DNA of 64,000 nucleotides from Patescibacteria group bacterium (GTDB lineage Bacteria; Patescibacteriota; Patescibacteriia; Magasanikbacterales; GWA2-37-8), in contig JAKLGL010000002.1 of the NCBI GenBank assembly GCA_022710645.1, forward strand, positions 78,337 to 142,336, written 5' to 3'. Of this stretch, positions 3,001 to 64,000 are shown piece by piece. Position 1 is the stretch's first letter, and every line of letters starts with the position of its first letter. The position numbers and the translations under genes are program-made. Under the pieces are notes generated by a model. It was not told the DNA's origin. It searched no databases and saw only the letters and a program-made list of their open reading frames with translations.

Positions 3001-3211
3001 CGCTGGCAATATAACCTTCCATCCCGATAATGGGTTTTATTTCTTCTTTGAGACATGCCTCATAAAATTCAATCGCTCCATACATATTGCCATGATCAGT
3101 CAAAGCCAACGCCGAAAAACCGCGTTTCTTCGCGGTCTTTACCAGTTCTTTGATTTTTGGCAATCCGTCCAAAAGCGAATAGTGGCTGTGGACGTGCAAG
3201 TGTGTAAACAC
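1..3211 (-). CDS. dnaE: DNA polymerase III alpha subunit, N-terminal part. The gene runs off the window start. GTG start at 3211.
   Basis: Minus-strand translation from 3211 reads VFTHLHVHSHYSLLDGLPKIKELVKTAKKRGFSALALTDHGNMYGAIEFYEA..., the PHP domain, followed by the polymerase core (GYNWEEADKFRKAMGKK, AAYGFNKAHAASYA). The ORF track lists only antisense junk ORFs here because this ORF has no end in the window. Confidence 0.85.
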   Translation of the reverse strand, partial: MFTHLHVHSHYSLLDGLPKIKELVKTAKKRGFSALALTDHGNMYGAIEFYEACLKEEIKPIIGMEGYIASGSRLEKNPHDKYFHILLLAENYIGYKNLMKLSSLAHTEGFYYKPRMDRELLRQYHEGIICGSACMRGEIAWALKKENNYEKAKKIALEYDEIFGRGNFFLEMMDIPALEGQTEINNQLIQISQETGIPLIVTRDVHYLNPEDAEAQDILTCIRDGKTLEDTERHSMVGMDFSLCDEKDIASRFKHIPEALENTGKIAERVNLVLELNKWHFPPIELPEGKTADEHLRDEVYDRLPKLIEISPAVRERVDYELGIIAKKGYSPYFIAVSDYVNYARNNGIMETTRGSGAGSIVSYAMGITTVNPLYFKLPFERFLNPYRPSPPDIDADFADDRRDDMIKYVTDKYGADKVAQIITFGTMMARGAIRDAGRALGYSYSFCDQLSKLIPAGAQGFQINIAKALELEPEFKELYDKNAQAKRLIDLAQKIEGCARHTSMHAAGVVISPTPLTDFTPIQRETGGERIVTQYEMHTVEAAGVLKMDFLGIRNLSILGHAVEIIEKTAGVKIDVFNIPWDDKKTYEMLARGETVGVFQLSGSGMTRYLKELKPTTIFDIMAMVALFRPGPMAVIPDYIARKQNPELITYLDPRMETYLDQSLGLIVYQDDVLLTAINLAGYNWEEADKFRKAMGKKIPEEMEKQKEKFYKGCKEFGKLDSALVDDLWHKIEPFAAYGFNKAHAASYAVVAYQTAYLKANYPIQYMTAILIAESGDMDKVPEIIHECEKIGIKVLPPDINQSFKNFAMITPEDGTTPYIRFGLSGVKNLGEHIADVIYRTRKEGGKYKDLEDFFKRVKDKDLNKKSLEALIKCGALDAFGYDRGLLLGNIENFLLFIKQNHEQNNTKQNSLFSGSSIGFTNKVKINPAPVATKDEILHWEKELLGVYVTAHPFEPFAKKMSDCLVPVKDLPSQGKNQWVIVGGIIESAKKKITRSGKTMMFVTIADLTDTLELLVFPKTYETTKDVWVEGRMVCVVGRTSEEEGDDKLFVEKAYEITPQNYRELAQQF

Positions 3212-3344: not shown

Positions 3345-3455
3345 GTTGAATTATATTGTAAAAAAATAAACCAAAAAGACCCTCCCTTTGGCTACTCCAT
3401 AATATCTCAAAAAACCGTCTTTGGCAACCTCCAAAAAATCTAGATTTTAAAATAA

Positions 3456-3486
3456 AAAAACCCGCACGTTATGCGCGGGGTATGAA
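3456..3486 (-). terminator. Rho-independent terminator downstream of paralog A.
   Basis: aaaaaaacccgcacgttatgcgcgggg is a GC stem with a T-run on the minus strand. It is near-identical to the terminator at 4805-4835. Confidence 0.5.
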
Positions 3487-3499
3487 AGAACAGCCGAAA

Positions 3500-4073
3500 T
3501 TAAAATGTTTCTTTACGAACAGCTAAAAACTTAGTTGCAGTAGATTCAGGCCAAGGATAATCAAATAGATAATTATCTAAATGATATCCAGATTTAGATA
3601 AATAATAACTAACAGGAACACAGGGGTGCTTATAACAATTAATAACGGACCCAAGAGCAACTACCATAAACTCCTTTTTTTTTGATTTCAGGATAAGTCC
3701 TGATAAAAACCTTGAATTCATGAAATGTTGCTGGACGAAGTCTGTTTTCTTCCATATGAGAAAGCACATCTTCTGTTGTAGGACGCCCTTCAAAAGGATT
3801 AAAAAGCTCTAAATCAAGATTAAATACACCATGTTCAATAACAGCAGGGAAATTACATTCTTTGTGAACAACATCAAAAACCACTTCTTCATTTTTTTCT
3901 TCATCATAATCAATAGAAATTGGATATTTTTTTGCAGAGATTAATTTATCTTCACAAAAATCTATCACTTTTTTCCTGTTTTTTGGATCAAATAAAGCAC
4001 GAGAATTTCTGTGTCCGAGTGCTTTCAAAAAAATCACCATCTCCTCAAAAAATCGTAACATTGTTTTCTCCAA
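3500..4073 (-). pseudogene. Paralog A of a three-member small-protein family. It is split into two overlapping frames (4073..3639 and 3793..3500) at an A9 homopolymer near 3664-3672. It may be a frameshifted pseudogene or a phase-variable gene.
   Basis: The N-terminus (FLKALGHRN..KKVIDFCEDKL) aligns with paralogs B and C (FIKAVGREN..KVKEFCKTL). Deleting one A from AAAAAAAAA fuses ...PEIKKK to EFMVVALGSV...AVRKETF. The upstream promoter and leader match copy C. Confidence 0.55.
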
Positions 4074-4078
4074 ATCTT

Positions 4079-4200
4079 TTCATTGTATTAATAATAAAAG
4101 GAACATATTTGTTGATTGCTTATCGTATAATATTTTAATGTTTTTGTCAACCCCGCTTAGCGGGGTTACAGTCACGCTCAGCGTGACAATATAATAATTG
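4079..4200 (-). promoter_or_regulatory. Duplicated upstream cassette (copy A). On the minus strand it reads hairpin gtcacgc-tga-gcgtgac, then hairpin ccccgc-tta-gcgggg, then -35 TTGACA, 17 nt, -10 TACGAT, then a conserved leader ending ATGGAGAAAACAATG.
   Basis: About 90% identical over roughly 115 nt to 6662-6775. The -35 is at 4145-4150 and the -10 at 4122-4127 (plus-strand coordinates). Confidence 0.5.
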
Positions 4201-4234
4201 ATCTAATTGATATTATCTTAACTTTTACAAGAAA

Positions 4235-4800
4235 TGAAAACCACCAGCTAACGCTGGTGGTTTCTTTCTTGCCGGCCGTTAGGCCGGCAGAGGCAACTTC
4301 GGTAGCTCTGGTCTGCGGGTTTGTTGATTATTGATATAGTTTTTAAGTTGGTATTCGTTAATACCGACGGTAGAGACAAAATAACCCCTTGACCAGAGCG
4401 AGCCCAACGGTAATTTATTGGGCGCCTTCTTTTTTAACCAATTACTACTTTTACCTTTGAATATTTGAACTACATAGGAAACGGAAAACTTAGGCGGAAT
4501 TATTATATAAAGATGAATATGTTCATCTCCGACATGCCAAGCTAACAATTTAATATCTTTCCATTTGGCTATCACCTTGAAAATTCTTTTTAATTCTTGT
4601 TTAATATACTTATCAACCAATACTTTACCGCGATATTTGGTAATCCAAACTAAGTGATATTGGCAAAGGTAAGTACAATGTTCCAGATTGTACAACCTAT
4701 ATGGTGCGGATGGAATAAAAATCACCTCCTTTCTGCTAAGCGGGGTGATTTTATTTTACCATGAGCTACGCTCCAAAAGGACACGCCGGCTAAAGCCGGC
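4235..4800 (-). mobile_element. IS200/IS605-family element carrying tnpA only. Boundaries are approximate.
   Basis: TnpA ORF flanked by subterminal hairpins: ccaccagc-taac-gctggtgg and gccggcc-gtta-ggccggc at 4243-4291, and cgccggc-taaa-gccggcg at 4775-4792. It is inserted between paralog cassettes A and B. Confidence 0.55.
4279..4725 (-). CDS. tnpA: IS200/IS605 family HUH/Y1 transposase TnpA (148 aa, GTG start).
   Basis: CQYHLVWITKYRGKVL ... DEHIHLYI (HuH) ... FKGKSSNWL ... LWSRGYFVSTVG (catalytic Tyr) ... NYINNQQ. This is a close pattern match to IS608-type TnpA. Confidence 0.8.
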   Translation of the reverse strand: MIFIPSAPYRLYNLEHCTYLCQYHLVWITKYRGKVLVDKYIKQELKRIFKVIAKWKDIKLLAWHVGDEHIHLYIIIPPKFSVSYVVQIFKGKSSNWLKKKAPNKLPLGSLWSRGYFVSTVGINEYQLKNYINNQQTRRPELPKLPLPA

Positions 4801-4804
4801 GGTT

Positions 4805-4835
4805 TTCGATTAATAAAAACCCGCACGTTGTGTGC
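4805..4835 (-). terminator. Rho-independent terminator downstream of paralog B.
   Basis: aaaaacccgcacgttgtgtgcggg has a 7-bp stem with a T-run on the minus strand. It is a near copy of the 3456-3486 terminator. Confidence 0.5.
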
Positions 4836-4853
4836 GGGATAACTTTGAGAATT

Positions 4854-5417
4854 TTAGGATTTGCGACGAAGGAGAAGAGCATTTTTTTTAAAAAAAAGAT
4901 CTCCATCCTTAAAATTATCACTTCCCCAACAATTTTCCTCCAGTAACTTAGATTCTTTGTCCCAAGTCAAATAATATTGATGGAAAGTATTTCCTATTCT
5001 TGGATTTAGATAATTGATGTTTTTTTCATCAACACCATCAACAAAAATCAAACAGTACTTCATAAAAATTTCTGGGAGACATTCTTTAAGCTCTAAAACA
5101 TAATCAATATCTTCAACCTCAACAACAGCGTTCAGTTCTTTTGCTCGTCTAATTACTTCATGGCCACTGATAGCATCCTCATCTTCTTTTAAAAAGGTTA
5201 TAATTTCATAAATCCGTCGACCAATTTTCATCTCTGTTGGTAATAAATTATGACCATTAGGTTTAATAGGGGCGAGAGTTTTACAAAAATCCTTCACTGC
5301 TCGACCGTTGTTTTTATCAACTAACCTTTCTGCATCTTCTTGTCCAAGATAATTAAGAAGATTGAGCAAATCTTTAACAGAAATTTTAACATGCAATCTT
5401 TCCATTTTAATCTCCAT
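4854..5417 (-). CDS. Paralog B of the small-protein family (187 aa). The likely true start is the second Met (MERLHVK...), using the GGAG inside ATGGAG as its SD.
   Basis: It shares FCKTL..LPTE.K.G.R.YE...FLK.DE..ISG and a C-terminal YY..W...LLLRRKS with paralogs A and C. It has its own consensus promoter. Confidence 0.6.
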   Translation of the reverse strand: MEIKMERLHVKISVKDLLNLLNYLGQEDAERLVDKNNGRAVKDFCKTLAPIKPNGHNLLPTEMKIGRRIYEIITFLKEDEDAISGHEVIRRAKELNAVVEVEDIDYVLELKECLPEIFMKYCLIFVDGVDEKNINYLNPRIGNTFHQYYLTWDKESKLLEENCWGSDNFKDGDLFFKKNALLLRRKS

Positions 5418-5458
5418 ACAAAGTTTAAAAATAAAAGGAACAATTTTACTAACTGCAT

Positions 5459-5487
5459 ATTATAGCACATTTTAGCACCCTTGTCAA
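5459..5487 (-). promoter_or_regulatory. Perfect sigma70 consensus promoter for paralog B. Minus strand: TTGACA-agggtgctaaaatgtgc-TATAAT, with the palindrome acccttgacaagggt overlapping the -35.
   Basis: Plus-strand tgtcaa at 5482-5487 and attata at 5459-5464, with a 17-nt spacer. The spacer is 14/17 identical to the promoter at 61503-61531. Confidence 0.5.
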
Positions 5488-5588
5488 GGGTATAATTTGG
5501 CTAATTTAAGACATTTTACAAAACAAAAACCCGCCATTTTCAGACGAATTTTTTATAATTTCGTAATTTTTCGTAAGTTCGTACGTAT

Positions 5589-5975
5589 TTATTTTTTCAT
5601 TTTCTTCGCCACTTTCTTAACCTTCTTCTGCGCAACCTCCATAGCTCTATCAACCGCATCTTTGGCGATGTCGCCAAAATCATCAACTTTATCATCCATA
5701 AAATTTCTAGCTTTTTTGGTAATGAAATTTTTTACCATTCCTCCGGCTGTTTCTTTGGCCATACCGAGCAAAGAAGAAATTCCTTCTATTTTATCTTGGA
5801 TAGAATTTATCGTATCTGTGATTCTCTGCAAACGAAGACGAAATTCTTCTACAATTGTATTTACATTTTTCAAAATCATCGCGGCGTAATAAAAAGTGTA
5901 ACAAAGAAACGCCGTTAACCAAATAATACAAAACGAAATGACGATATATAAAATATCTTTTGAATTTTCCAACAT
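5589..5975 (-). CDS. Small membrane-anchored coiled-coil protein (128 aa), possibly DUF948-like.
   Basis: N-terminal TM helix ILYIVISFCIIWLTAFLCYTFYYAAMIL followed by a charged helical tail. A strong RBS (aaggagg) precedes the ATG. Confidence 0.5.
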   Translation of the reverse strand: MLENSKDILYIVISFCIIWLTAFLCYTFYYAAMILKNVNTIVEEFRLRLQRITDTINSIQDKIEGISSLLGMAKETAGGMVKNFITKKARNFMDDKVDDFGDIAKDAVDRAMEVAQKKVKKVAKKMKK

Positions 5976-6069
5976 ATTTCCTCCTTATTAAATTTTAATT
6001 ATATTTGAATTATAACATTTTTTAGAAAAACGAGCAAATAGTCATAAATAAACTTACGAAAGTATATAA

Positions 6070-6122
6070 AAAAAGAAAACCCTGTATATCATTTGCTAAA
6101 AGCATTTGATACACAGGGGTAT
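6070..6122 (-). terminator. Rho-independent terminator for paralog C (12-bp stem).
   Basis: Minus strand: ccctgtgtatca ... tgatatacaggg followed by ttttctttttttat. Confidence 0.5.
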
Positions 6123-6182
6123 GAATTTGCGAAGTGCCCAAGGAATCAAGAAACGATTCCAAGAATCCAAGGACCCAAGCGA

Positions 6183-6662
6183 CTACTTGCGACGGAGAAT
6201 CAGACCAGCGTCACGCTGGTAGTAGTCGTTATGAGAGACCCAGCCTCCGATCCAACGGTCATCGTCCCAGTAGACATAGCAGACGTCACCGGAACCGTCG
6301 GGACGGTGCCAATTTGTAAAGACAAAGTAAACTTTGCCTCTAAAATTTTCCGGAATATTCTGCTGGTGATCCAGCAAATATTGCCCGTCGTCCTCTCCGA
6401 GATGTGCCAACATCTCTTTTGCCTGCCTGACCATACCGTTCCCAGAAATTATTTCCTCGTCCCCTTTGAGGAATCCGAGAAGTTCGTAGGTACGATCACC
6501 TACTTTTATTTCAGTCGGCAGGTCTGAAGGAGAAATAAGAGTTTTGCAAAACTCTTTTACTTTTTCTATATTACTTTCCTTAAGTAATATAGTGAAATTT
6601 TCTCTCCCGACGGCTTTGATAAAATTACTGATTTTTTTTAAGAAATTCATTTCAATCTCCAT
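6183..6662 (-). CDS. Paralog C of the small-protein family (159 aa). The C-terminal variable half is GC-rich.
   Basis: MEIEMNFLKKISNFIKAVGREN..KVKEFCKTLISPSDLPTEIKVGDRTYELLGFLKGDEEIISG ... YVYWDDDRWIGGW...LILRRK. Its promoter cassette is the same as paralog A's. Confidence 0.6.
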   Translation of the reverse strand: MEIEMNFLKKISNFIKAVGRENFTILLKESNIEKVKEFCKTLISPSDLPTEIKVGDRTYELLGFLKGDEEIISGNGMVRQAKEMLAHLGEDDGQYLLDHQQNIPENFRGKVYFVFTNWHRPDGSGDVCYVYWDDDRWIGGWVSHNDYYQRDAGLILRRK

Positions 6663-6775
6663 TACAAATTTATAATAATAAAAGGAACTATTTTATTGAT
6701 TGCTTATCGTATAATATTTTAACTTTTTTGTCAACCCCGCTTAGCGGGGTTGTAGTCACGCTCAGCGTGACAAAA
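6662..6775 (-). promoter_or_regulatory. Duplicated upstream cassette (copy C): two GC hairpins, then TTGACA-17-TACGAT, then the conserved leader.
   Basis: tgtcaa at 6729-6734, ccccgcttagcgggg at 6735-6749, gtcacgctcagcgtgac at 6755-6771, and the -10 atcgta at 6706-6711. Confidence 0.5.
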
Positions 6776-6861
6776 CTCCATTTAATTCAGCTAATTTAGC
6801 GATTCCGCAAAACAAAAAACCGCCCTTGCGAGCGATTTTTAATATCCAGTATCCAATATTT

Positions 6862-9324
6862 TTACCCTCTCATTTCCGCTTTAAACTTTTCTTTCAAAAT
6901 ATTTGAAATTTTCCCCATCACTTCATCAACTTCTCCGGTATTAAGTGTTCTTTCCGAAGAACCGAAAATAAATCTGTAAGCCATGCTTTTATCCCCCGCT
7001 TTCACATGTTCACCTTCGTAAACATCAAAAAGTTCTGCGGATTTCAAAAGAGGATAAACATCTTTGATTTTGGAAATAATTTCTTGATGAGAAATATTTT
7101 TATCAACTGTAAAAGCTAAATCTCTTTCCACAGTCGGAAATTCGGAAATCGACGTGTAAGTAAAAGGATTTTTCTCTTTCAATATATCGAGCAAATCATT
7201 CAAATTAATTTCCAATACCCCGACTCTTTCGTTTAAATCCCATTTTTTCGCTGTGAGAGGATTGATTTCAAAAATCATACCGACCATTTTACCATCAATA
7301 AAAATTTCTCCCACTCTGCCCGGATGGGCAAAATTTTTCACAAACTTCGGAGCTTCAATCAAAAAGTCTGTTTTCAAATCCGCCATGATTTTTTCCAAAG
7401 CCAAACGAACTGGGAAAAATCCGCTTTGTCCTTTTTTGGAATAATTCACGATTGTCAACACACTATCTTGTCTCGGCAATAATTCATCATTATTGGAAAG
7501 AGCTCTCGGACCGGCCAATTCCGCCAAATAAATTTTACCGATTTCAAAAATATTCACTTGATCAAAATTTTCCATGTTTTTTTGAACATTTTCCAACACA
7601 TTCGGCAACAATTCTCGACGTAAATACGGTTTTTCTTTTGAAAGCGGATTATCAAGTTCCAAATATTTGGTTTTATCTTCGCCTAAACGTTCAATTTGAG
7701 CATCGCTGATAAAAGAATAATTATAAACTTCGTCATAAGCGAGTTCTTTGGATAAAATATTGCGTAAACGATGTTCCAAATCTCGCAATTCATTTTTCTC
7801 CGGCGGCGCAATTTCAAAAGACGGTAAAATACTTTCTATTTTATCGTAACCGTAAATTCTGCCTATTTCTTCGGCTAAATCCTCGGCCATGGAAATATCT
7901 TTGGTCGCGCGCCAGGTCGGAATTTTCACGCTTAAACCGTCTTTACCTTTTTCTTTAACTTCAAAACCCAAGCGTGTCAAGATACCGATAATTTCTTTTT
8001 TATCCAAATCAATTCCGATTTTCTTACAAATATCTCCGACACTGGTTTGAATCGGTCCGGTAGCCAAATGAAAATTCTTTTCATCTACTATATTACTTAC
8101 AACTTTGGCTTCCGGACAAAAATCCAATATCATTTCTACTGCTTTTTTCAAAGCATCAGACGTCATATTCGGATCCAAACTTTTTTCAAAACGCGCGGAA
8201 GAATCTGTGCGACTATCATAACGAAGCGCAGTTTTGCGAATATTTACCGGTTCAAAATTAGCTGATTCAAAAATAATTGTTGTTGTGCTATCACTGATAC
8301 CACTATCAAATCCGCCCATCACCCCAGCTAGAGCAATAGGTTTTTCTTCATCCGCAATTACCAAATCATTTTCCGTCAATTTAATCACTTTTTCATCAAG
8401 TAATTTAAAATCTTCTTCCGGTTTAGCGGTACGAACAATAATAGTTTTTGAATTTTTGTTTTTAGTTTTTAAATTATTGGCATCAAAAGCATGAAGTGGT
8501 TGTCCCAAATCATACATTATATAATTGGTAATATCCACGACATTGTTGATACTACGCAAACCAACAGCTGACAAACTTTGTTGCAACCAAAGCGGAGACG
8601 GCCCGATTTTTATTCCATCTACTACGACCGCCATATAACGCGGACACAATTTAATATCATCCACATCTACTTTTAATTTTATTTCTTTACCGGGAATAAT
8701 TTCTTTTGTTTCATAATTTTTTAATTCTCGTGGAAAAAGCACAGATACTTCACGCGCTATACCGTAATGTCCCCACAAATCCGGGCGGTTGGAAAGTGAT
8801 TTATTGTCAATTTCCAAAACTACATCGTCTAATCCTAAAGCTTTTTTCAATTCTGTTCCTGGTTTAAATTTCAATTCTGTAAAATCCAAAATTTCTTTCT
8901 CTCCTTTTGCCGGAAACATCTGTTCCAAACCGATTTCACTACCTCCACACATCATCCCGTAAGAATCTACATCGCGAATTTTGGTTGGTACAATTTCTAC
9001 CAAATCTTTTTCCCCATGCCAATGTACTTTGGCTCCGACTTTGGCCACTGCCACTAACATTCCATCCGCTACATTGCTACCACCACAAACAATTTGCAAA
9101 CTTTCTTTTCCTACATCCACCAAACACAATTTCAATTTATCAGCATTTGGATGTTTGTCAGCTTTGAGGACTTTTCCAACTACAATATTATGTAGCCCGT
9201 CACCTTGTCTGATAATATTTTCCACTTCTACCGTACTCAATTTCAATTTTTCCGCTACTATCTCCGGAGTAATGGAATCAGGCAAGGTAATATATTTTTT
9301 TAACCAATTGTAAGAAATATTCAT
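6862..9324 (-). CDS. pheT: Phenylalanine--tRNA ligase beta subunit.
   Basis: 820 aa. The N-terminus MNISYNWLKKYI is PheT-like, with the tRNA-binding and B3/4 regions arranged in PheT order and pheS immediately downstream in the operon (pheS is transcribed first on the minus strand). Confidence 0.9.
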   Translation of the reverse strand: MNISYNWLKKYITLPDSITPEIVAEKLKLSTVEVENIIRQGDGLHNIVVGKVLKADKHPNADKLKLCLVDVGKESLQIVCGGSNVADGMLVAVAKVGAKVHWHGEKDLVEIVPTKIRDVDSYGMMCGGSEIGLEQMFPAKGEKEILDFTELKFKPGTELKKALGLDDVVLEIDNKSLSNRPDLWGHYGIAREVSVLFPRELKNYETKEIIPGKEIKLKVDVDDIKLCPRYMAVVVDGIKIGPSPLWLQQSLSAVGLRSINNVVDITNYIMYDLGQPLHAFDANNLKTKNKNSKTIIVRTAKPEEDFKLLDEKVIKLTENDLVIADEEKPIALAGVMGGFDSGISDSTTTIIFESANFEPVNIRKTALRYDSRTDSSARFEKSLDPNMTSDALKKAVEMILDFCPEAKVVSNIVDEKNFHLATGPIQTSVGDICKKIGIDLDKKEIIGILTRLGFEVKEKGKDGLSVKIPTWRATKDISMAEDLAEEIGRIYGYDKIESILPSFEIAPPEKNELRDLEHRLRNILSKELAYDEVYNYSFISDAQIERLGEDKTKYLELDNPLSKEKPYLRRELLPNVLENVQKNMENFDQVNIFEIGKIYLAELAGPRALSNNDELLPRQDSVLTIVNYSKKGQSGFFPVRLALEKIMADLKTDFLIEAPKFVKNFAHPGRVGEIFIDGKMVGMIFEINPLTAKKWDLNERVGVLEINLNDLLDILKEKNPFTYTSISEFPTVERDLAFTVDKNISHQEIISKIKDVYPLLKSAELFDVYEGEHVKAGDKSMAYRFIFGSSERTLNTGEVDEVMGKISNILKEKFKAEMRG

Positions 9325-14559: not shown

Positions 14560-14603
14560 AGTATAAACTAAAATTTATCTTTTGTCAACCCCGCTAAGCG
14601 GGG
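14560..14603 (-). promoter_or_regulatory. Third copy of the CCCCGC-hairpin plus TTGACA-17-TATACT promoter module.
   Basis: Plus strand tgtcaa at 14583-14588, ccccgctaagcgggg at 14589-14603, and -10 agtata at 14560-14565. Confidence 0.45.
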
Positions 14604-38844: not shown

Positions 38845-39165
38845 AAAAACAAAACCTTCCTGATTACGGGAGGGTTTTTTAAAAGCGAAACACCTCCCCA
38901 GGGGGGAAGTGTTTCTAAATTGCGCAACGGCGAGACGCCTTAATGCCTTTGGTAATGCCAAGGTTCTGCCGCAACGCAAAATAATAATAACAAAAAAGAA
39001 TAAAAAAAGCAAGATAAAAAGCAAAACTCCGTGCCCAATAAATTGTGCACGGAGTTAAGCCAGCTTTAAAGGCTATCTTGACATTACCAAATATAATATA
39101 GCACATTTTTGGCATCTTGTCAAGAGTTGAATTTGAGGATATGATATATAGTAGAGATAAATTTT

Positions 39166-59336: not shown

Positions 59337-60527
59337 TTATTTAATAATTTTTGTTACTACACCGGAACCAACGGTACGACCACCTTCGCGAATAGCGAAG
59401 TTCATTTTGTCTTCCATAGCAACCGGTTTGATAAGTTTAACAGTAAAGTTAACAGTATCTCCAGGCATAACCATTTCTGTGCCGGCAGGCAAAGTGACTT
59501 CACCGGTAACATCAGTAGTTCTGATATAGAACTGTGGTTTGTAACCGTTGAAGAAAGGTTTGTGACGACCGCCTTCTTCTTGTTTGAGCACGTAAACTTG
59601 AGCTTCATATTCGGTATGAGGAGTGATGGAGCCAGGTTTGGCCAAAACCATACCTCTTTCTACATCTTCCTTTTTTGTACCGCGAAGCAACAATCCGGCG
59701 TTATCTCCAGCTTGACCTTCTTTCAATTGTTTATTAAACATTTCAATACCGGTAATCACGGTTTTGGAAGTTTCTTCTTTCAAACCGACGATTTCAACTT
59801 CATCATTGATATGAACGGAACCGCGACCGATACGACCGGTAACTACAGTACCGCGACCTTCAATAGAGAATACATCTTCGATAGGCATCAAAAACGGTTT
59901 ATCAACATCGCGAGTAGGAGTCGGAATATATTCATCAACGGCTTTCATCAAATCCAATACGCATTTTGAAGCAGCTTCATCGCTAGGATTTTGCAAAGCT
60001 TTCAAAGCGGAACCGCGAATGATAGGAGTGGTATCTCCAGGGAAATTATATTTTTTGAGCAAATCACGAACTTCGGCTTCCACCAAATCAATCAATTCCG
60101 GATCGGTAACTTGATCAACTTTATTTAAAAAGACAACGATATACGGCACACCTACTTGACGAGCAAGCAAAATGTGTTCGCGAGTCTGAGGCATAGGACC
60201 GTCAGCAGCGGAAACAACAAGAATAGCACCGTCCATTTGAGCGGCACCAGTAATCATGTTTTTCACATAGTCAGCATGACCAGGACAGTCAACGTGAGCA
60301 TAGTGACGAGCATCAGTTTCGTATTCTACATGAGCTGTAGAAATGGTAATACCGCGAGCTTTTGATTCTGGAGCTTTGTCCAAATCATCCACGCCCTTAT
60401 TTTGAGCGGTCATGCCATGTGCAGTTAAAACTGACAAAATAGCAGCGGTAAGAGTAGTCTTACCGTGGTCGACGTGGCCAATAGTACCAACGTTGACGTG
60501 TGGCTTGCTTCGTACGAATTCAGCCAT
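59337..60527 (-). CDS. tuf: Elongation factor Tu.
   Basis: [14 protein letters not shown], 396 aa. A hairpin lies between tuf and rpsJ at 59290-59320. Confidence 0.95.
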
Positions 60528-60761
60528 ATTGGTTAACTTAAATCGTGCGGCACTTTCCCCGAGTGGTCGGGATAAGAGTTTTGTAATCCAACCGCGAAAA
60601 AAATTTTAAATAAAAAATGTTATCAAACAACAGCCCATAACCGTTTATTTGGTTAACAGCTGTTTTTTAATAGCTTTTGCATTATAGCAGGTATTTTTAA
60701 TTTTGGCAAGAGGCTAATGTGGACATTTTGTGCATAAATTAGCCACCGTTTAATTTTGATA

Positions 60762-61346
60762 TTATTCAACCGGTTCCAAATAAAACCTTTCCTCTTCTTC
60801 GGGAATATCATTAAGATTTTCTTCTCCAAAAAAACCGTTATTATAAAACTCCTGGTCCGGATCATTTTTTTTGCGTAATTTCTGCTCAAAATCCTCTTTT
60901 TTGACATCTCGACGGCGAGAAACTACATCCTGAGAGGTTAAGACATCTTTCAAAGAAACTAAACCCGGTCCAAGATTGTTTTTTCGCTCAGTTCTGCTAA
61001 AATTTATTTCTGGTTGGTTGTTTTTTCTATCTTCATTGATAAGCTGTTCCAAAGCCCGGTTGATGCTCTTTTTTTCTTTATTTTTACGCAAAATCTCCTC
61101 AAATTCTTCATATTTTTTCTTTTCTTCTTGCAGAGAATGCCAGAAAGCTATTTCTTTGTTTACTTTTTCAAGCATTTCATCTTCATTCAAATTTGCAATT
61201 TGATGATGGGTGCCAGAAGTAAGTTTTTCATATTCAGAAGCCGGTAAAATAACATACAAATCCCCGTTTTCTCCGTCTGCCAAAACACCACGACCATCTG
61301 TTTGACGCAGTAAACGAAATAAATCTTTAAAAACTTTATTAAACAT
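60762..61346 (-). CDS. Orphan charged/coiled-coil protein (194 aa) in the fusA-tuf insertion.
   Basis: ORF with promoter TTGACT-16/17-TAAAAT upstream. Terminator at 60620-60665. Confidence 0.5.
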   Translation of the reverse strand: MFNKVFKDLFRLLRQTDGRGVLADGENGDLYVILPASEYEKLTSGTHHQIANLNEDEMLEKVNKEIAFWHSLQEEKKKYEEFEEILRKNKEKKSINRALEQLINEDRKNNQPEINFSRTERKNNLGPGLVSLKDVLTSQDVVSRRRDVKKEDFEQKLRKKNDPDQEFYNNGFFGEENLNDIPEEEERFYLEPVE

Positions 61347-61563
61347 AGAAATATTGATTTTAAAAGTTTTTTCATTTTAACATTATGTGAAGAAAAGTCA
61401 AGTTTTTCAGCTATTTTGCTAATTTTATTTTTTATGCTAAAATAAAAATGGCTAGAAAAATAGCTTTTTGGCTAATTTTAGCCAAAATAAAGCAAAAAGC
61501 TCTTGACAAAGGTGTCAAACTGTGCTATAATAATATGTTTTATAGCTAATTTAAGAGAAAAAT

Positions 61564-62424
61564 ATGGAAAATTCTTTTCCTCCATACCATGAATTTATAA
61601 AACAAAACAAAAAACCTGAAAAAAAAGATGGTTTTTATATCTCTTCTATAGATCCAGCATCATCGGAGAAATTAAAAATATTAGAAAAGATGGCAGAAGA
61701 AGATATGAAAAAAGCAAAAAAGCCTTTAAAGCCAGCTATGGAATATTCGGAATTTAAAAATAGTGAACTAAAAAAAGGTTATTATCAAAAAATGAAGAGA
61801 TTGTTTTTAGAATATGAAAAATTAACTTCTCCGGAAGAAAAAGAAAGTTTTATAAAAAAAATAATCCAAGAAGAAAAATTAGAATTCAATGACCTATACA
61901 CCACTTGGATGTTTTTGATGGAAATTGAAAAACATAATGAAACTGAATTACTAAAACAAGAAAAGATTGTTGGAGAAACTGAAGGCGGAGGCGAAGTTAT
62001 TGAGGAACAAAAATTGGCAAACTCTTTAAATAATTTTAGAAATTTTTTAATTGATATTTCTAAACAAACCGATTGGATTTCTAAACCTGTAGATTATAAA
62101 GATTATTTAAAAGAAGGTTTTGAAATGGTAGATGGAAAACCAATAAACTTAGAAGATAAACTCGTGTTGGAAAAATTAAAACAAATAGAAAGTTTGGTTG
62201 AAAGTTACGATCCCGGTAGTGCTGATTCTATGAAATTGGTAGAGAAAGGTAAAAAAAATATACAAATAATTAGTAACTACCTAAAAGAAAGTCCTGAAAA
62301 TTTAGTTCAAAATATTTCAAGAGAATCTGACGAAAAAGGAAAGTCATTCTTTGAACAAATTTTAAAATCTCTGGTTACTAAACCTGTTGAAAATAATGAT
62401 TTAAACAATTTAATAACAACTTAA
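61564..62424 (+). CDS. Orphan protein (286 aa) behind a perfect consensus promoter.
   Basis: TTGACA (61503-61508), aaggtgtcaaactgtgc, TATAAT (61526-61531). The promoter is nearly identical to that of paralog B. Confidence 0.5.
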   Translation: MENSFPPYHEFIKQNKKPEKKDGFYISSIDPASSEKLKILEKMAEEDMKKAKKPLKPAMEYSEFKNSELKKGYYQKMKRLFLEYEKLTSPEEKESFIKKIIQEEKLEFNDLYTTWMFLMEIEKHNETELLKQEKIVGETEGGGEVIEEQKLANSLNNFRNFLIDISKQTDWISKPVDYKDYLKEGFEMVDGKPINLEDKLVLEKLKQIESLVESYDPGSADSMKLVEKGKKNIQIISNYLKESPENLVQNISRESDEKGKSFFEQILKSLVTKPVENNDLNNLITT

Positions 62425-62443
62425 AAAATTTAATTTTAAACAT

Positions 62444-62755
62444 ATGAGATTAGGAACATGGAATTTAGATGAGGCCAAAAAAGCCGAAGAAATAAAATTT
62501 TCACAAAAAAGATTAGAAAAACAAAACGCCCTTAAAAATTCAAACAGGGCAGAGCATAAGGATTTAAAAAAACACAGTGTCTTAACTGAACAAAACATAC
62601 GGGATCTAGCAGAAATAAATATCTCAAATCCATTTCTATATGACGATGATGAATTTGAAGGAGAAGGAGAAGGATCAAAAACACAAATTATTTCTCAAGA
62701 AGCATTGGAAGAAAAAGAATTAGAACAAGCAAGAAAAAGAATAGGTAAAGCTTAA
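62444..62755 (+). CDS. Orphan acidic protein (103 aa), probably co-transcribed with the previous gene.
   Basis: 20-nt gap from the upstream ORF. Terminator hairpin at 62762-62790. Confidence 0.45.
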   Translation: MRLGTWNLDEAKKAEEIKFSQKRLEKQNALKNSNRAEHKDLKKHSVLTEQNIRDLAEINISNPFLYDDDEFEGEGEGSKTQIISQEALEEKELEQARKRIGKA

Positions 62756-62808
62756 AAAATAAAAATCTCTCCGTTTTTGCGGAGAGATTTTTTATTTAAC
62801 AAAATGTT

Positions 62809-64000
62809 TTATTTTTGTTTTCCAGAGATGATATTTTGAGCGACATTATTCGGTACTTCGGCATAATGAGAAAATTCCATAGTGGAACTAGCGCGACCCT
62901 GAGTAATGTTGCGTAAATTGGTGGTATAACCAAACATAGAAGCGAGCGGAACAATGGCTTTCACCACTTTGAGTTGTCCGCGTTCAGTCATTTCTTGAAT
63001 TTGACCTCGTTTGGAGTTCAAATCACCGATAACGTCTCCCATGAATTGTTCCGGGGTTAAAACTTCAACTTTCATGATAGGTTCCAAAATAATCGGATTG
63101 GCTTTGCGACACGCATCTTGAAAAGCCATAGAGCCGGCCATTTTGAAAGCAGCTTCGGAAGAATCTACTTCATGATAAGAACCGTCAAAACAAGTAACTT
63201 TGATATCCACTACCGGATAACCTGCTTGCACACCGCGAGTGATGGCTTCTTTGATACCTTTTTCAATGGCCGGAATATATTCGCGAGGAACAACACCGCC
63301 TTTGACAGCATCGACAAATTCAAAGTTACCTTTGGTTTTATCTTCTTGAGGTTCAACACGCAACCAGCAATGACCATATTGACCGCGACCGCCAGATTGT
63401 TTGATATATTTACCTTCGGCTTCGGCGGAATTTTTGATGGTTTCTTTGTAAGCAACTTGTGGAGCGCCGACATTGGCTTCCACTTTAAATTCACGTTTCA
63501 TGCGGTCCACGATAATTTCCAAATGCAACTCACCCATACCTTCGATGATGGTTTGTAAAGTTTCTTCATCAGTATGAACGCGGAAAGTCGGATCTTCTTC
63601 GGTAAGCTTTTGTAAAGCCATACCGATTTTTTCTTGATCAGCTTTGGTTTTCGGTTCAATAGCGATAGAGATAACCGGTTCTGGAAAAGTAATTTTTTCC
63701 AAAACTATAGGTTTGTTTTCATCACAAAGAGTGTCTCCGGTCACCGTATCTTTGAGCCCGATAGCAGCGGCGATTTCACCGGCAAAAACTTCGTTTACAT
63801 CTTCACGATGATTGGCGTGCATACGGACGATACGAGAAATTCTTTCTCTTTCGCCTTTGGTAGAATTGAGCACATATGAACCGGTAGTAACTTTACCGGA
63901 ATAAACACGGAAGAAAATCAAACGACCGACAAAAGGATCGGTAGCAACTTTAAAAGCCAAAGCGGAAAAAGGTTCTTCGTCTTCGGCTTTACGAGACATA
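62809..64000 (-). CDS. fusA: Elongation factor G, C-terminal part. The gene continues beyond the window end.
   Basis: Domains III-V of EF-G: ...[16 protein letters not shown]..., ending SGKQK. Confidence 0.9.

Follow-up and report, generated by a model that had tools for sequence, protein, structure and literature searches.

When two genes of a "universal" operon are found apart, has something been inserted between them, or is the separation an old property of the lineage? The question is raised by the junction of fusA and tuf in the DNA analysed here, a stretch of 64,000 nucleotides from a low-G+C bacterium of the Candidate Phyla Radiation (CPR), which we call the window. The classical str operon of E. 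coli and most bacteria reads rpsL-rpsG-fusA-tufA, with secondary tufA promoters inside or after fusA. In the window fusA and tuf lie on the same strand and in that order with rpsJ next, as a str operon should, but a gap of 2,281 bp with three open reading frames (ORFs) separates them. An earlier note on this DNA took the three for orphan genes interrupting the junction. It also suggested that a promoter resemblance to an island between dnaE and pheT points to common regulation or common delivery. Its coordinates, its ORF sizes (194, 286 and 103 amino acids), the 2.3-kb gap and both quoted promoters are correct. Our explanation is a different one. We think it quite likely that a clade of Candidatus Magasanikbacteria has its own, lineage-specific form of the str operon, passed on vertically, and that the region is this form and not a recent insertion. 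The features of the junction are these:

59337 to 60527, minus strand: tuf (EF-Tu; Pfam GTP_EFTU 2.6e-63, D2, D3), followed by the S10 operon (rpsJ, rplC and onward)
between ORF194 and tuf: spacer of 234 bp
60762 to 61346, minus strand: ORF194, 194 amino acids, directly upstream of tuf; the window's member of the family we call X
between ORF286 and ORF194: divergent control region of 217 bp
61564 to 62424, plus strand: ORF286, first gene of a pair
62444 to 62755, plus strand: ORF103, second gene of the pair
62761 to 62792, both strands: G+C-rich bidirectional intrinsic-terminator hairpin CTCTCCG...CGGAGAG, flanked by an A-run and, at its other end, by a T-run
62809 to 63999, minus strand: 3' part of fusA, EF-G domains II-V (Pfam EFG_IV 1e-46, EFG_III, EFG_C), cut by the end of the window

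ORF286 and ORF103, with their counterparts in relatives, are called the pair or the cassette below.

A constant neighbour of tuf

ORF194 is not an orphan. A profile search finds at least 241 CPR proteins that match X at E <= 0.001, all of them called "hypothetical" or, once, misnamed. A protein named from Candidatus Magasanikbacteria is 100% identical to ORF194, and Magasanikbacteria and Falkowbacteria are among the source names of the homologues. X is single-copy within the window, and the ratio of nonsynonymous to synonymous substitution rates (dN/dS) between the window's copy and that of the relative L081 is 0.10.

We compared tuf loci, one genome per species, which are numbered with an L; L081 to L090 were reached through homologues of X. 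A hidden Markov model (HMM) of the family finds one ORF per locus in L001-L003, L005 and L081-L090, always directly upstream of tuf, and in each of the 13 other loci where the HMM match is significant X adjoins tuf on its upstream side. Of the loci reached through tuf, four that are CPR but not Saccharibacteria have X-like ORFs, each HMM-significant, directly upstream of tuf and on the same strand, and these vary in length:

L001: 181 amino acids
L002: 131 amino acids
L003: 93 amino acids
L005: 140 amino acids

L004 has a weaker version of 81 amino acids upstream of tuf, which is sub-threshold in the HMM. A contig look-up of five distant members of the family placed all five directly upstream of tuf. 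The order rpsL-rpsG-fusA-X-tuf-rpsJ is complete in L086, L087 and L090. The HMM found no match in any non-CPR locus sampled. Where there is no HMM match and both genes are present, the fusA-tuf gap measures 24-553 nt, the 553 nt being that of L004; in loci without any X, the non-CPR loci falling within this range, it measures 24-443 nt. We conclude that fusA-X-tuf is the ancestral order for this CPR group, that the expectation of adjacency is wrong there, and that ORF194 is an ancestral neighbour of tuf.

The boundary on the other side of X varies between lineages. The 16S rRNA gene, with trmD before it, stands just upstream of X-tuf in three loci:

L001: 3939-5442
L088: 2817-4312
L089: 3164-4659

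Only in L089 is fusA seen upstream of trmD and 16S, the stretches of L001 and L088 not containing it. Because these genes sit there in other Magasanikbacteria, the upstream boundary of X is a recurrent rearrangement point.

Two side observations belong to this comparison. In L003 (2726-5519) two ORFs of 467 and 448 amino acids, with the type IV pilin-like N-termini FTLVELL and FTLIELL, lie between fusA and X. Some str loci of CPR type and some homologues of X (L005, L009 and others) carry the labels Gammaproteobacteria, Planctomycetes, Kapabacteria or Marinilabiliales, and these records are probably mis-binned or mislabelled contigs of metagenome-assembled genomes.

We did not find a gene between fusA and tuf described in the CPR literature. 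Keyword searching finds no mention of fusA, tuf or EF-Tu in the ribosome-focused CPR papers searched.

A cassette inherited in place

The close relatives sampled belong to three lineages, L081/L082, L083/L084 and L085, a small sample in which identity to the X of the window is 83%, 77% and 66% respectively. In all three, fusA and X are separated by two or three opposite-strand ORFs, and rpsL and rpsG are found upstream of fusA in L081, L083 and L085. The earlier note read the gap as an interruption of the junction, and it named conservation of the three ORFs at this position in all relatives as what would refute it. Within this clade that refuting outcome is seen, for each of the close relatives sampled has the ORFs at the same site. 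No patchiness was seen: the pair is present in three of the three other clade lineages, few as these are.

The genes tuf and fusA have changed little, both being 91-94% identical across the window and L081-L085. The cassette has changed a great deal. ORF286 is 83% identical in L081 and ORF103 is 66% identical (tblastn), the L081 copy of the latter having 128 amino acids and the window copy being shorter at its N-terminus. Beyond L081 the likeness nearly disappears. The first ORFs of L083 and L085 match ORF286 solely in the motif (I/V)GETE(G/S)GG, and they are 36% identical to each other (E 8e-32). The second ORF of L081 matches the second ORF of L085 (198 amino acids) at E 4e-7 and that of L083 at E 0.007. 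Since the cassette occupies the same site in the relatives and has diverged more than its flanks, we conclude that it was inherited in place and evolves very fast.

Rapid change is not loss of constraint. Against L081 the dN/dS of ORF286 is 0.11 and that of ORF103 is 0.12, with dS of 0.7-1.5; the values for tuf, fusA and rpsJ are 0.04-0.06. On this pattern ORF286 and ORF103 are genuine genes, kept by purifying selection. Their products, like the other cassette proteins, have 33-45% charged residues and no hydrophobic segment (ORF103 is 40% K/E/D/R). A set of 5.8 billion proteins contains four homologues of ORF286, and HMMER, run in full against 1.84 billion representatives, returned its own cluster only. 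Pfam, PHROGs, NCBIfam and PADLOC were scanned with all three ORFs and with the L083 and L085 counterparts, and neither ORF286 and ORF103 nor those counterparts matched a family in them. The pair encodes soluble, taxonomically restricted proteins whose genes, relative to more distant relatives, are additions to the locus. To that extent the note's description of orphan genes stands for these two, while for ORF194 it does not.

That the pair came with a mobile element can be rejected: no direct or inverted repeats, transposase, integrase or mobility domain flank it.

Separate transcription units

The signals predicted around these genes suggest how the junction is now read:

61503 to 61531, plus strand: predicted promoter of the pair, TTGACAAAGGTGTCAAACTGTGCTATAAT, TTGACA-17-TATAAT with a TGTGC extended -10 (12/12 + TG)
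61374 to 61401, minus strand: predicted ORF194 promoter, TTGACT-16-TGTTAAAAT (10/12 + TG in the promoter scan)
60681 to 60709, minus strand: predicted tuf promoter, TTGCCA-17-TGCTATAAT (11/12 + TG)
60598 to 60672, minus strand: leader hairpin and U-run, a candidate terminator or attenuator, or a 5' stabiliser
60547 to 60596, minus strand: leader motif CGCGGTTGGATTACAAAA...CGACCACTCGG...CCGC, just upstream of tuf

The hairpin at 62761-62792 has 13 pairs, five of them G-C, in the terminator scan, and it is the predicted end of both fusA on the minus strand and ORF103 on the plus strand. The terminator that had been said to bound the pair is thus supported, and it would also close fusA. Co-transcription of fusA and tuf, or read-through between them, is unlikely in the window clade because this terminator hairpin and two opposite-strand genes intervene. 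ORF194 had been credited with a promoter and a terminator of its own. The promoter is supported by the predicted site at 61401 to 61374, both boxes of which fall in invariant columns when the control region is aligned with those of the relatives. As to the terminator, the scan flagged none, and the hairpin with its U-run at 60672 to 60598 lies downstream of the tuf promoter. A tuf promoter had been expected near 60530-60620. That stretch has no promoter-like site and is instead a conserved 5' leader; the best site is at 60709 to 60681, and it is kept not only in L081, L083 and L085 but also in L001, a more distant locus.

The tuf leader folds better than all 200 shuffles of its sequence (z = -2.9). 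Its inner stem AACC/GGTT becomes AATC/GATT in L083 and L085, a compensatory change, and six of the 11 predicted pairs in the helix of the leader motif show compensatory changes. The motif occurs upstream of tuf in L001, L081-L085, L088 (partly) and L089. The conserved leaders, with the motif UGGAUNACAAAA...CGACCACUCG, are found at:

window: 60547-60672, minus strand
L001: 6376-6476
L088: 5690-5790
L089: 5932-6032

This looks like a regulatory leader, whether an attenuator, a stabiliser or a protein-binding site, and we regard it as a candidate cis-regulatory RNA of Magasanikbacteria-type genomes. The S10 leader of E. coli is controlled by attenuation mediated by L4. The two are alike in having a structured hairpin and a U-run between the promoter and the first gene of the tuf-S10 unit. 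Unlike the E. coli leader, the motif of the window leader is confined to Magasanikbacteria-type loci and has no match in Rfam. With Rfam 15 there is no match at gathering score in the gap, and the only matches in the window are three tRNAs; a permissive search of 60450-61600 gave only noise, with nothing below E 0.5. In E. coli, tufB has tRNA upstream. No tRNA was found upstream of tuf or in the gap here.

Put together, these predictions describe an old operon that would now be divided into separate units. Transcription of fusA would run to the bidirectional terminator and the cassette would be transcribed from a strong consensus promoter, while X would have its own promoter and tuf with the S10 operon would start from another, with a conserved structured leader of about 150 nt. 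As in the classical str operon, the order rpsL-rpsG-fusA...tuf-rpsJ is found in the CPR relatives, and a proximal promoter is predicted for tuf itself. The window differs from the classical form first in the gene X between fusA and tuf, which belongs to this CPR group, and then in the terminator and opposite-strand cassette that the window clade adds.

Architecture and possible role of X

An AlphaFold2 model of X, built like the motif counts below from 94 family sequences, has a pLDDT (the model's local confidence score) of 72 over the full length and 81 in the N-terminal part. It contains an alpha-beta-beta-alpha domain at residues 1-45 (pLDDT 81-90), then a long helix, then a disordered acidic C-terminal part. 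The N-terminal domain holds a TGDR motif, present in 86 of the 94 members, and a Y-E pair; INRDI (INRDI-W, in the long helix) is present in 85. Most members end in an aromatic-acidic motif, PVFYEEP(V) in 29 of 94 and ED..YLE (EEDRQYLEE) in 45, and in the window clade this is RFYLEPVE. The 81-amino-acid form in L004 retains only the N-terminal domain and the terminal motif.

The nearest known family is that of the Phd/YefM antitoxins (PF02604). It gives weak matches to 60 of the 94 members, the best at E 4.9e-5, and ORF194 itself scores 13.8 bits (E 0.051), below the gathering cut-off of 29.8 bits. An hhalign comparison with YefM gives E 4.7e-4 over 24 columns that cover strands beta2-beta3 and the next helix (aligned segment VLADGENGDLYVILPASEYEKLTS). 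X and these antitoxins share this local similarity over a beta-hairpin and the following helix, as well as a general layout in which a small N-terminal domain leads into an acidic, disordered tail. X differs from them in that its score is below the cut-off, the first, N-terminal strand of the YefM fold is missing from its model, it has no toxin partner, and it keeps a fixed position beside tuf. A marginal PADLOC assignment of ORF194 to Cas11 (E 0.0019) was judged spurious.

Most likely X acts on the translation machinery, and this is the least certain step of our explanation. The N-terminal domain would dimerise, and the acidic-aromatic peptide at the C-terminus, on its flexible acidic linker, would dock on EF-Tu or the ribosome. 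The C-terminal tip of SSB, and the ribosomal stalk P-proteins with which archaea and eukaryotes recruit translational GTPases, dock through acidic C-terminal tails that end in aromatic residues. X would resemble them in its flexible acidic linker ending in PVFYEEPV, EEDRQYLEE or RFYLEPVE; it differs in having no sequence homology with either, and its docking partner is a candidate only. We put forward a dimeric adaptor or regulator of this kind with low confidence. Alternatively X may bind DNA or RNA and so regulate the tuf/S10 unit. More tentative still is the fuller version, in which X would be an undescribed lineage-specific translation factor or EF-Tu/ribosome-binding regulator, derived from a Phd/YefM-like antitoxin domain, that docks by its C-terminal peptide and may sense or control the tuf leader.

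Do similar promoters share a regulator?

The promoter of the pair had been matched with that of "paralog B" in the dnaE-pheT island, and we found a third of the same class:

5459 to 5487, minus strand: the comparison promoter, TTGACAAGGGTGCTAAAATGTGCTATAAT, predicted to drive the 187-amino-acid ORF at 4854-5417
39095 to 39123, minus strand: third promoter, TTGACAAGATGCCAAAAATGTGCTATATT, ahead of a short non-coding stretch terminated by a hairpin

The third promoter belongs to a gene-free stretch of 320 nt (38845-39165, minus strand) with a hairpin and T-run at about 39055 to 39020 after the promoter and further hairpins beyond; it is probably a small non-coding RNA, for which no Rfam match at gathering score was found.

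We call the first two the 61503 and 5487 promoters. In the 61503 promoter TGTG abuts the -10 box, as in an extended -10 (TRTG) promoter of the sigma-70 type, and L081-L085 have TTGACA-N12-TGTGCTATAAT unchanged at the orthologous site. The cassette is thus very likely transcribed from this promoter. The two spacers agree at 13 of 17 positions, not the 14 claimed, and a joint pattern of both promoters matches the window twice where 0.00 matches are expected. The pattern TTGACAA-N7-AAA-N-TGTGCTATAAT, built from positions common to the promoters of the window and the orthologues, has at least 120 matches in unrelated metagenome contigs of G+C 0.25-0.64; among the matches listed the free positions show only a mild base bias. 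Viral contigs hold more than 146 promoters of the core class. Because the extended pattern is so widespread, most of the 13/17 is simply the consensus of a strong promoter, in which an A-rich spacer joins the -35 box to a TGTG-extended -10. The resemblance would then come from both being near-perfect promoters of the sigma-70 type with these features, and they would not have been delivered together.

Some likeness is left over. Eight of the 12 free spacer positions are equal between the 61503 and 5487 promoters, a match reached by 1.1% of pairs among 146 unrelated promoters of the class. A further extended -10 box (TGCTAAAAT), present in some copies, may account for part of this excess. The 19-mer TGCTAAAATGTGCTATAAT, two extended -10 boxes 10 nt apart, occurs in the 5487 promoter and in the L081 and L083 orthologues and may be a pair of overlapping promoters in tandem:

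window: 5469-5487, minus strand
L081: 5770-5798
L083: 5783-5811

Both promoters have a palindrome over the -35 box, as the earlier note said, though the two are alike in neither sequence nor register. That of 61503 is TTGACA-AAGG-TGTCAA, centred 3' of the -35 box and missing from all three orthologues; that of 5487 is ACCCTTG-A-CAAGGGT, centred inside the box. The different registers, and the absence of the first from the orthologues, led us to reject these palindromes as a shared operator.

A possible operator lies further upstream. The palindrome TTGGCTAATTTTAGCCAA (61468 to 61485, in the divergent control region) is kept with small changes in L081, L083 and L085, and a related sequence, TTGGCTAATTTAAGAC, lies upstream of the 5487 promoter; an element TTGGCTAATTT precedes both. 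The core GGCTAAT/ATTAGCC (TTAGCCAA), sometimes a full palindrome, is found upstream of strong promoters at variable distance:

window: 61468-61485, 5497-5512 and 60736-60743
L095: about 5165-5185
L102: about 3110-3130

The contig of L095 also carries secE-nusG-rplK.

One DNA-binding protein, possibly X itself, might read this element upstream of the -35 box and so co-regulate the promoters of the cassette, of paralog B and perhaps of tuf. Phd/YefM antitoxins act on palindromic operators, and X has a weak domain of that kind. The retention of TTGGCTAATTTTAGCCAA in the three relatives, the presence of TTGGCTAATTTAAGAC at the 5487 promoter, GGCTAATTT and ATTAGCC upstream of the -35 box of tuf, and the similar palindromes upstream of consensus promoters in L095 and L102 all point the same way. 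So do the counts, with TTAGCCAA occurring 11 times in the window against 3.25 expected and GCTAATTT having six intergenic copies against 1.2 expected. However, half of these intergenic copies come from the fusA-tuf region alone, and the element stands at varying distances from the -35 box (about 26 nt, 18 nt and other values). In most lineages X directly follows fusA and is not preceded by a separate promoter that it might regulate, the Phd/YefM similarity is sub-threshold in Pfam, and that family was not recovered by the fold search. We regard this regulatory scheme as unlikely, though it has points in its favour. Shared regulation through the upstream element is possible, because of the eight matches in 12 free positions and the TTGGCTAATTT element at both promoters, and it is weakly supported. 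Shared delivery of the genes behind the two promoters is not supported, the promoter pattern being generic.

Recent cargo or old inheritance?

The suggestion that the three genes are recent accessory cargo in a once-contiguous junction, brought by the same mechanism as the dnaE-pheT island, has real observations behind it. The G+C content falls to 0.28-0.30 over 61-63 kb. The G+C content at third codon positions (GC3) of the pair is 0.17-0.18 (0.18 for ORF286), compared with 0.30-0.34 in the neighbours, ORF286 is nearly without homologues, the two promoter spacers match at 13 of 17 positions, and the island holds a transposase. Against this, ORF194 is the ancestral neighbour of tuf, and the pair is syntenic in every clade relative sampled, more diverged than its flanks and under purifying selection. 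The gap has no flanking repeats and lacks the repetitive extragenic palindromic (REP)-like element of the island, CCCCGCTTAGCGGGG; PHROGs and PADLOC give no match for the pair, and the promoter pattern is generic. Low GC3 fits K/E-rich, fast-evolving genes. We consider recent cargo very improbable and already largely refuted.

The island itself (3400-6900) has three paralogous ORFs without a family match (3639-4073, 4854-5417 and 6183-6662), an IS200-type Y1 transposase at 4279-4725 (PF01797, E 1e-33), a further ORF of 128 amino acids and a repeat of about 50 nt, ttgtcaaccccgcttagcggggtt..agtcacgctcagcgtgaca, at about 4145 and 6730. The palindrome CCCCGCTTAGCGGGG occurs also at 14589. A look-up of paralog B returned matches only from the same genome.

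That X is a working type II Phd/YefM antitoxin in a toxin-antitoxin module is hardly credible and already disfavoured: the weak PF02604 matches and the antitoxin-like layout of N-terminal domain and disordered tail speak for it, but the score lies well under the cut-off, the model lacks the first YefM strand, the next gene is tuf in all 13 other HMM-match loci and in L004 and never a Doc, YoeB or RelE-type toxin, and toxin-antitoxin modules, being mobile, would not be expected to stay in strict synteny with core genes of translation. We do not file X as an antitoxin because the similarity is weak and the downstream gene is tuf. That ORF286 and ORF103 are chance frames in an A+T-rich spacer, or a non-coding RNA region, would suit their want of family matches, near absence of homologues and low-complexity K/E-rich composition, but it is just as implausible given that four strongly diverged lineages all keep the frames open, with lengths that are much alike, the dN/dS values at dS 0.7-1.5, a conserved consensus promoter at the right distance and no Rfam match.

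Vertical inheritance of a lineage-specific operon has its own difficulties, and these should be set beside the rivals. X is missing from the CPR locus L006 and from L008 and L012, which are labelled Saccharibacteria, and is not universal in the radiation. L081-L090 were obtained through X, and what they add independently is its position there, not its presence. The low GC3 of the pair would also fit an ancient foreign origin. The eight matches in 12 free positions (P about 0.01), with the upstream TTGGCTAATTT element, exceed what a generic consensus alone would give, although the excess is mild. All the promoters, terminators and the leader are predictions. For X, Foldseek against the PDB gave nothing significant (best E 0.13-0.17) and did not recover the YefM/Phd fold, a sequence search found no solved relative, and its function is drawn solely from position and architecture.

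In L006 (5561-8001, from a Patescibacteria genome) tuf comes right after rpsK-rpsD-rpoA-rplQ, with no fusA and no X upstream.

Implications

Two parts of the inherited-operon explanation are shown by the loci compared. Several CPR lineages have the order rpsL-rpsG-fusA-X-tuf-rpsJ, with X an uncharacterised small protein. In one sub-clade, two or three opposite-strand genes for fast-evolving, highly charged, soluble proteins separate fusA from X and have been kept since its lineages diverged. The str operon thus has a form particular to this lineage, and it includes a conserved gene, X, that had not been described.

The locus also holds some general lessons. Where a "universal" operon has a gap, this can be an old trait of a lineage and not an insertion. 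Orphan-looking, fast-evolving genes can be stably inherited beside core genes, and two perfect consensus promoters can look alike without a common history. CPR bacteria have a stripped-down and unusual translation machinery. X, always beside tuf in a sizeable CPR subgroup and built of two strongly conserved modules, is a candidate for a lineage-specific component or regulator of translation. If this is true, a functional link to elongation in these bacteria with reduced genomes would explain why X keeps its place between fusA and tuf.

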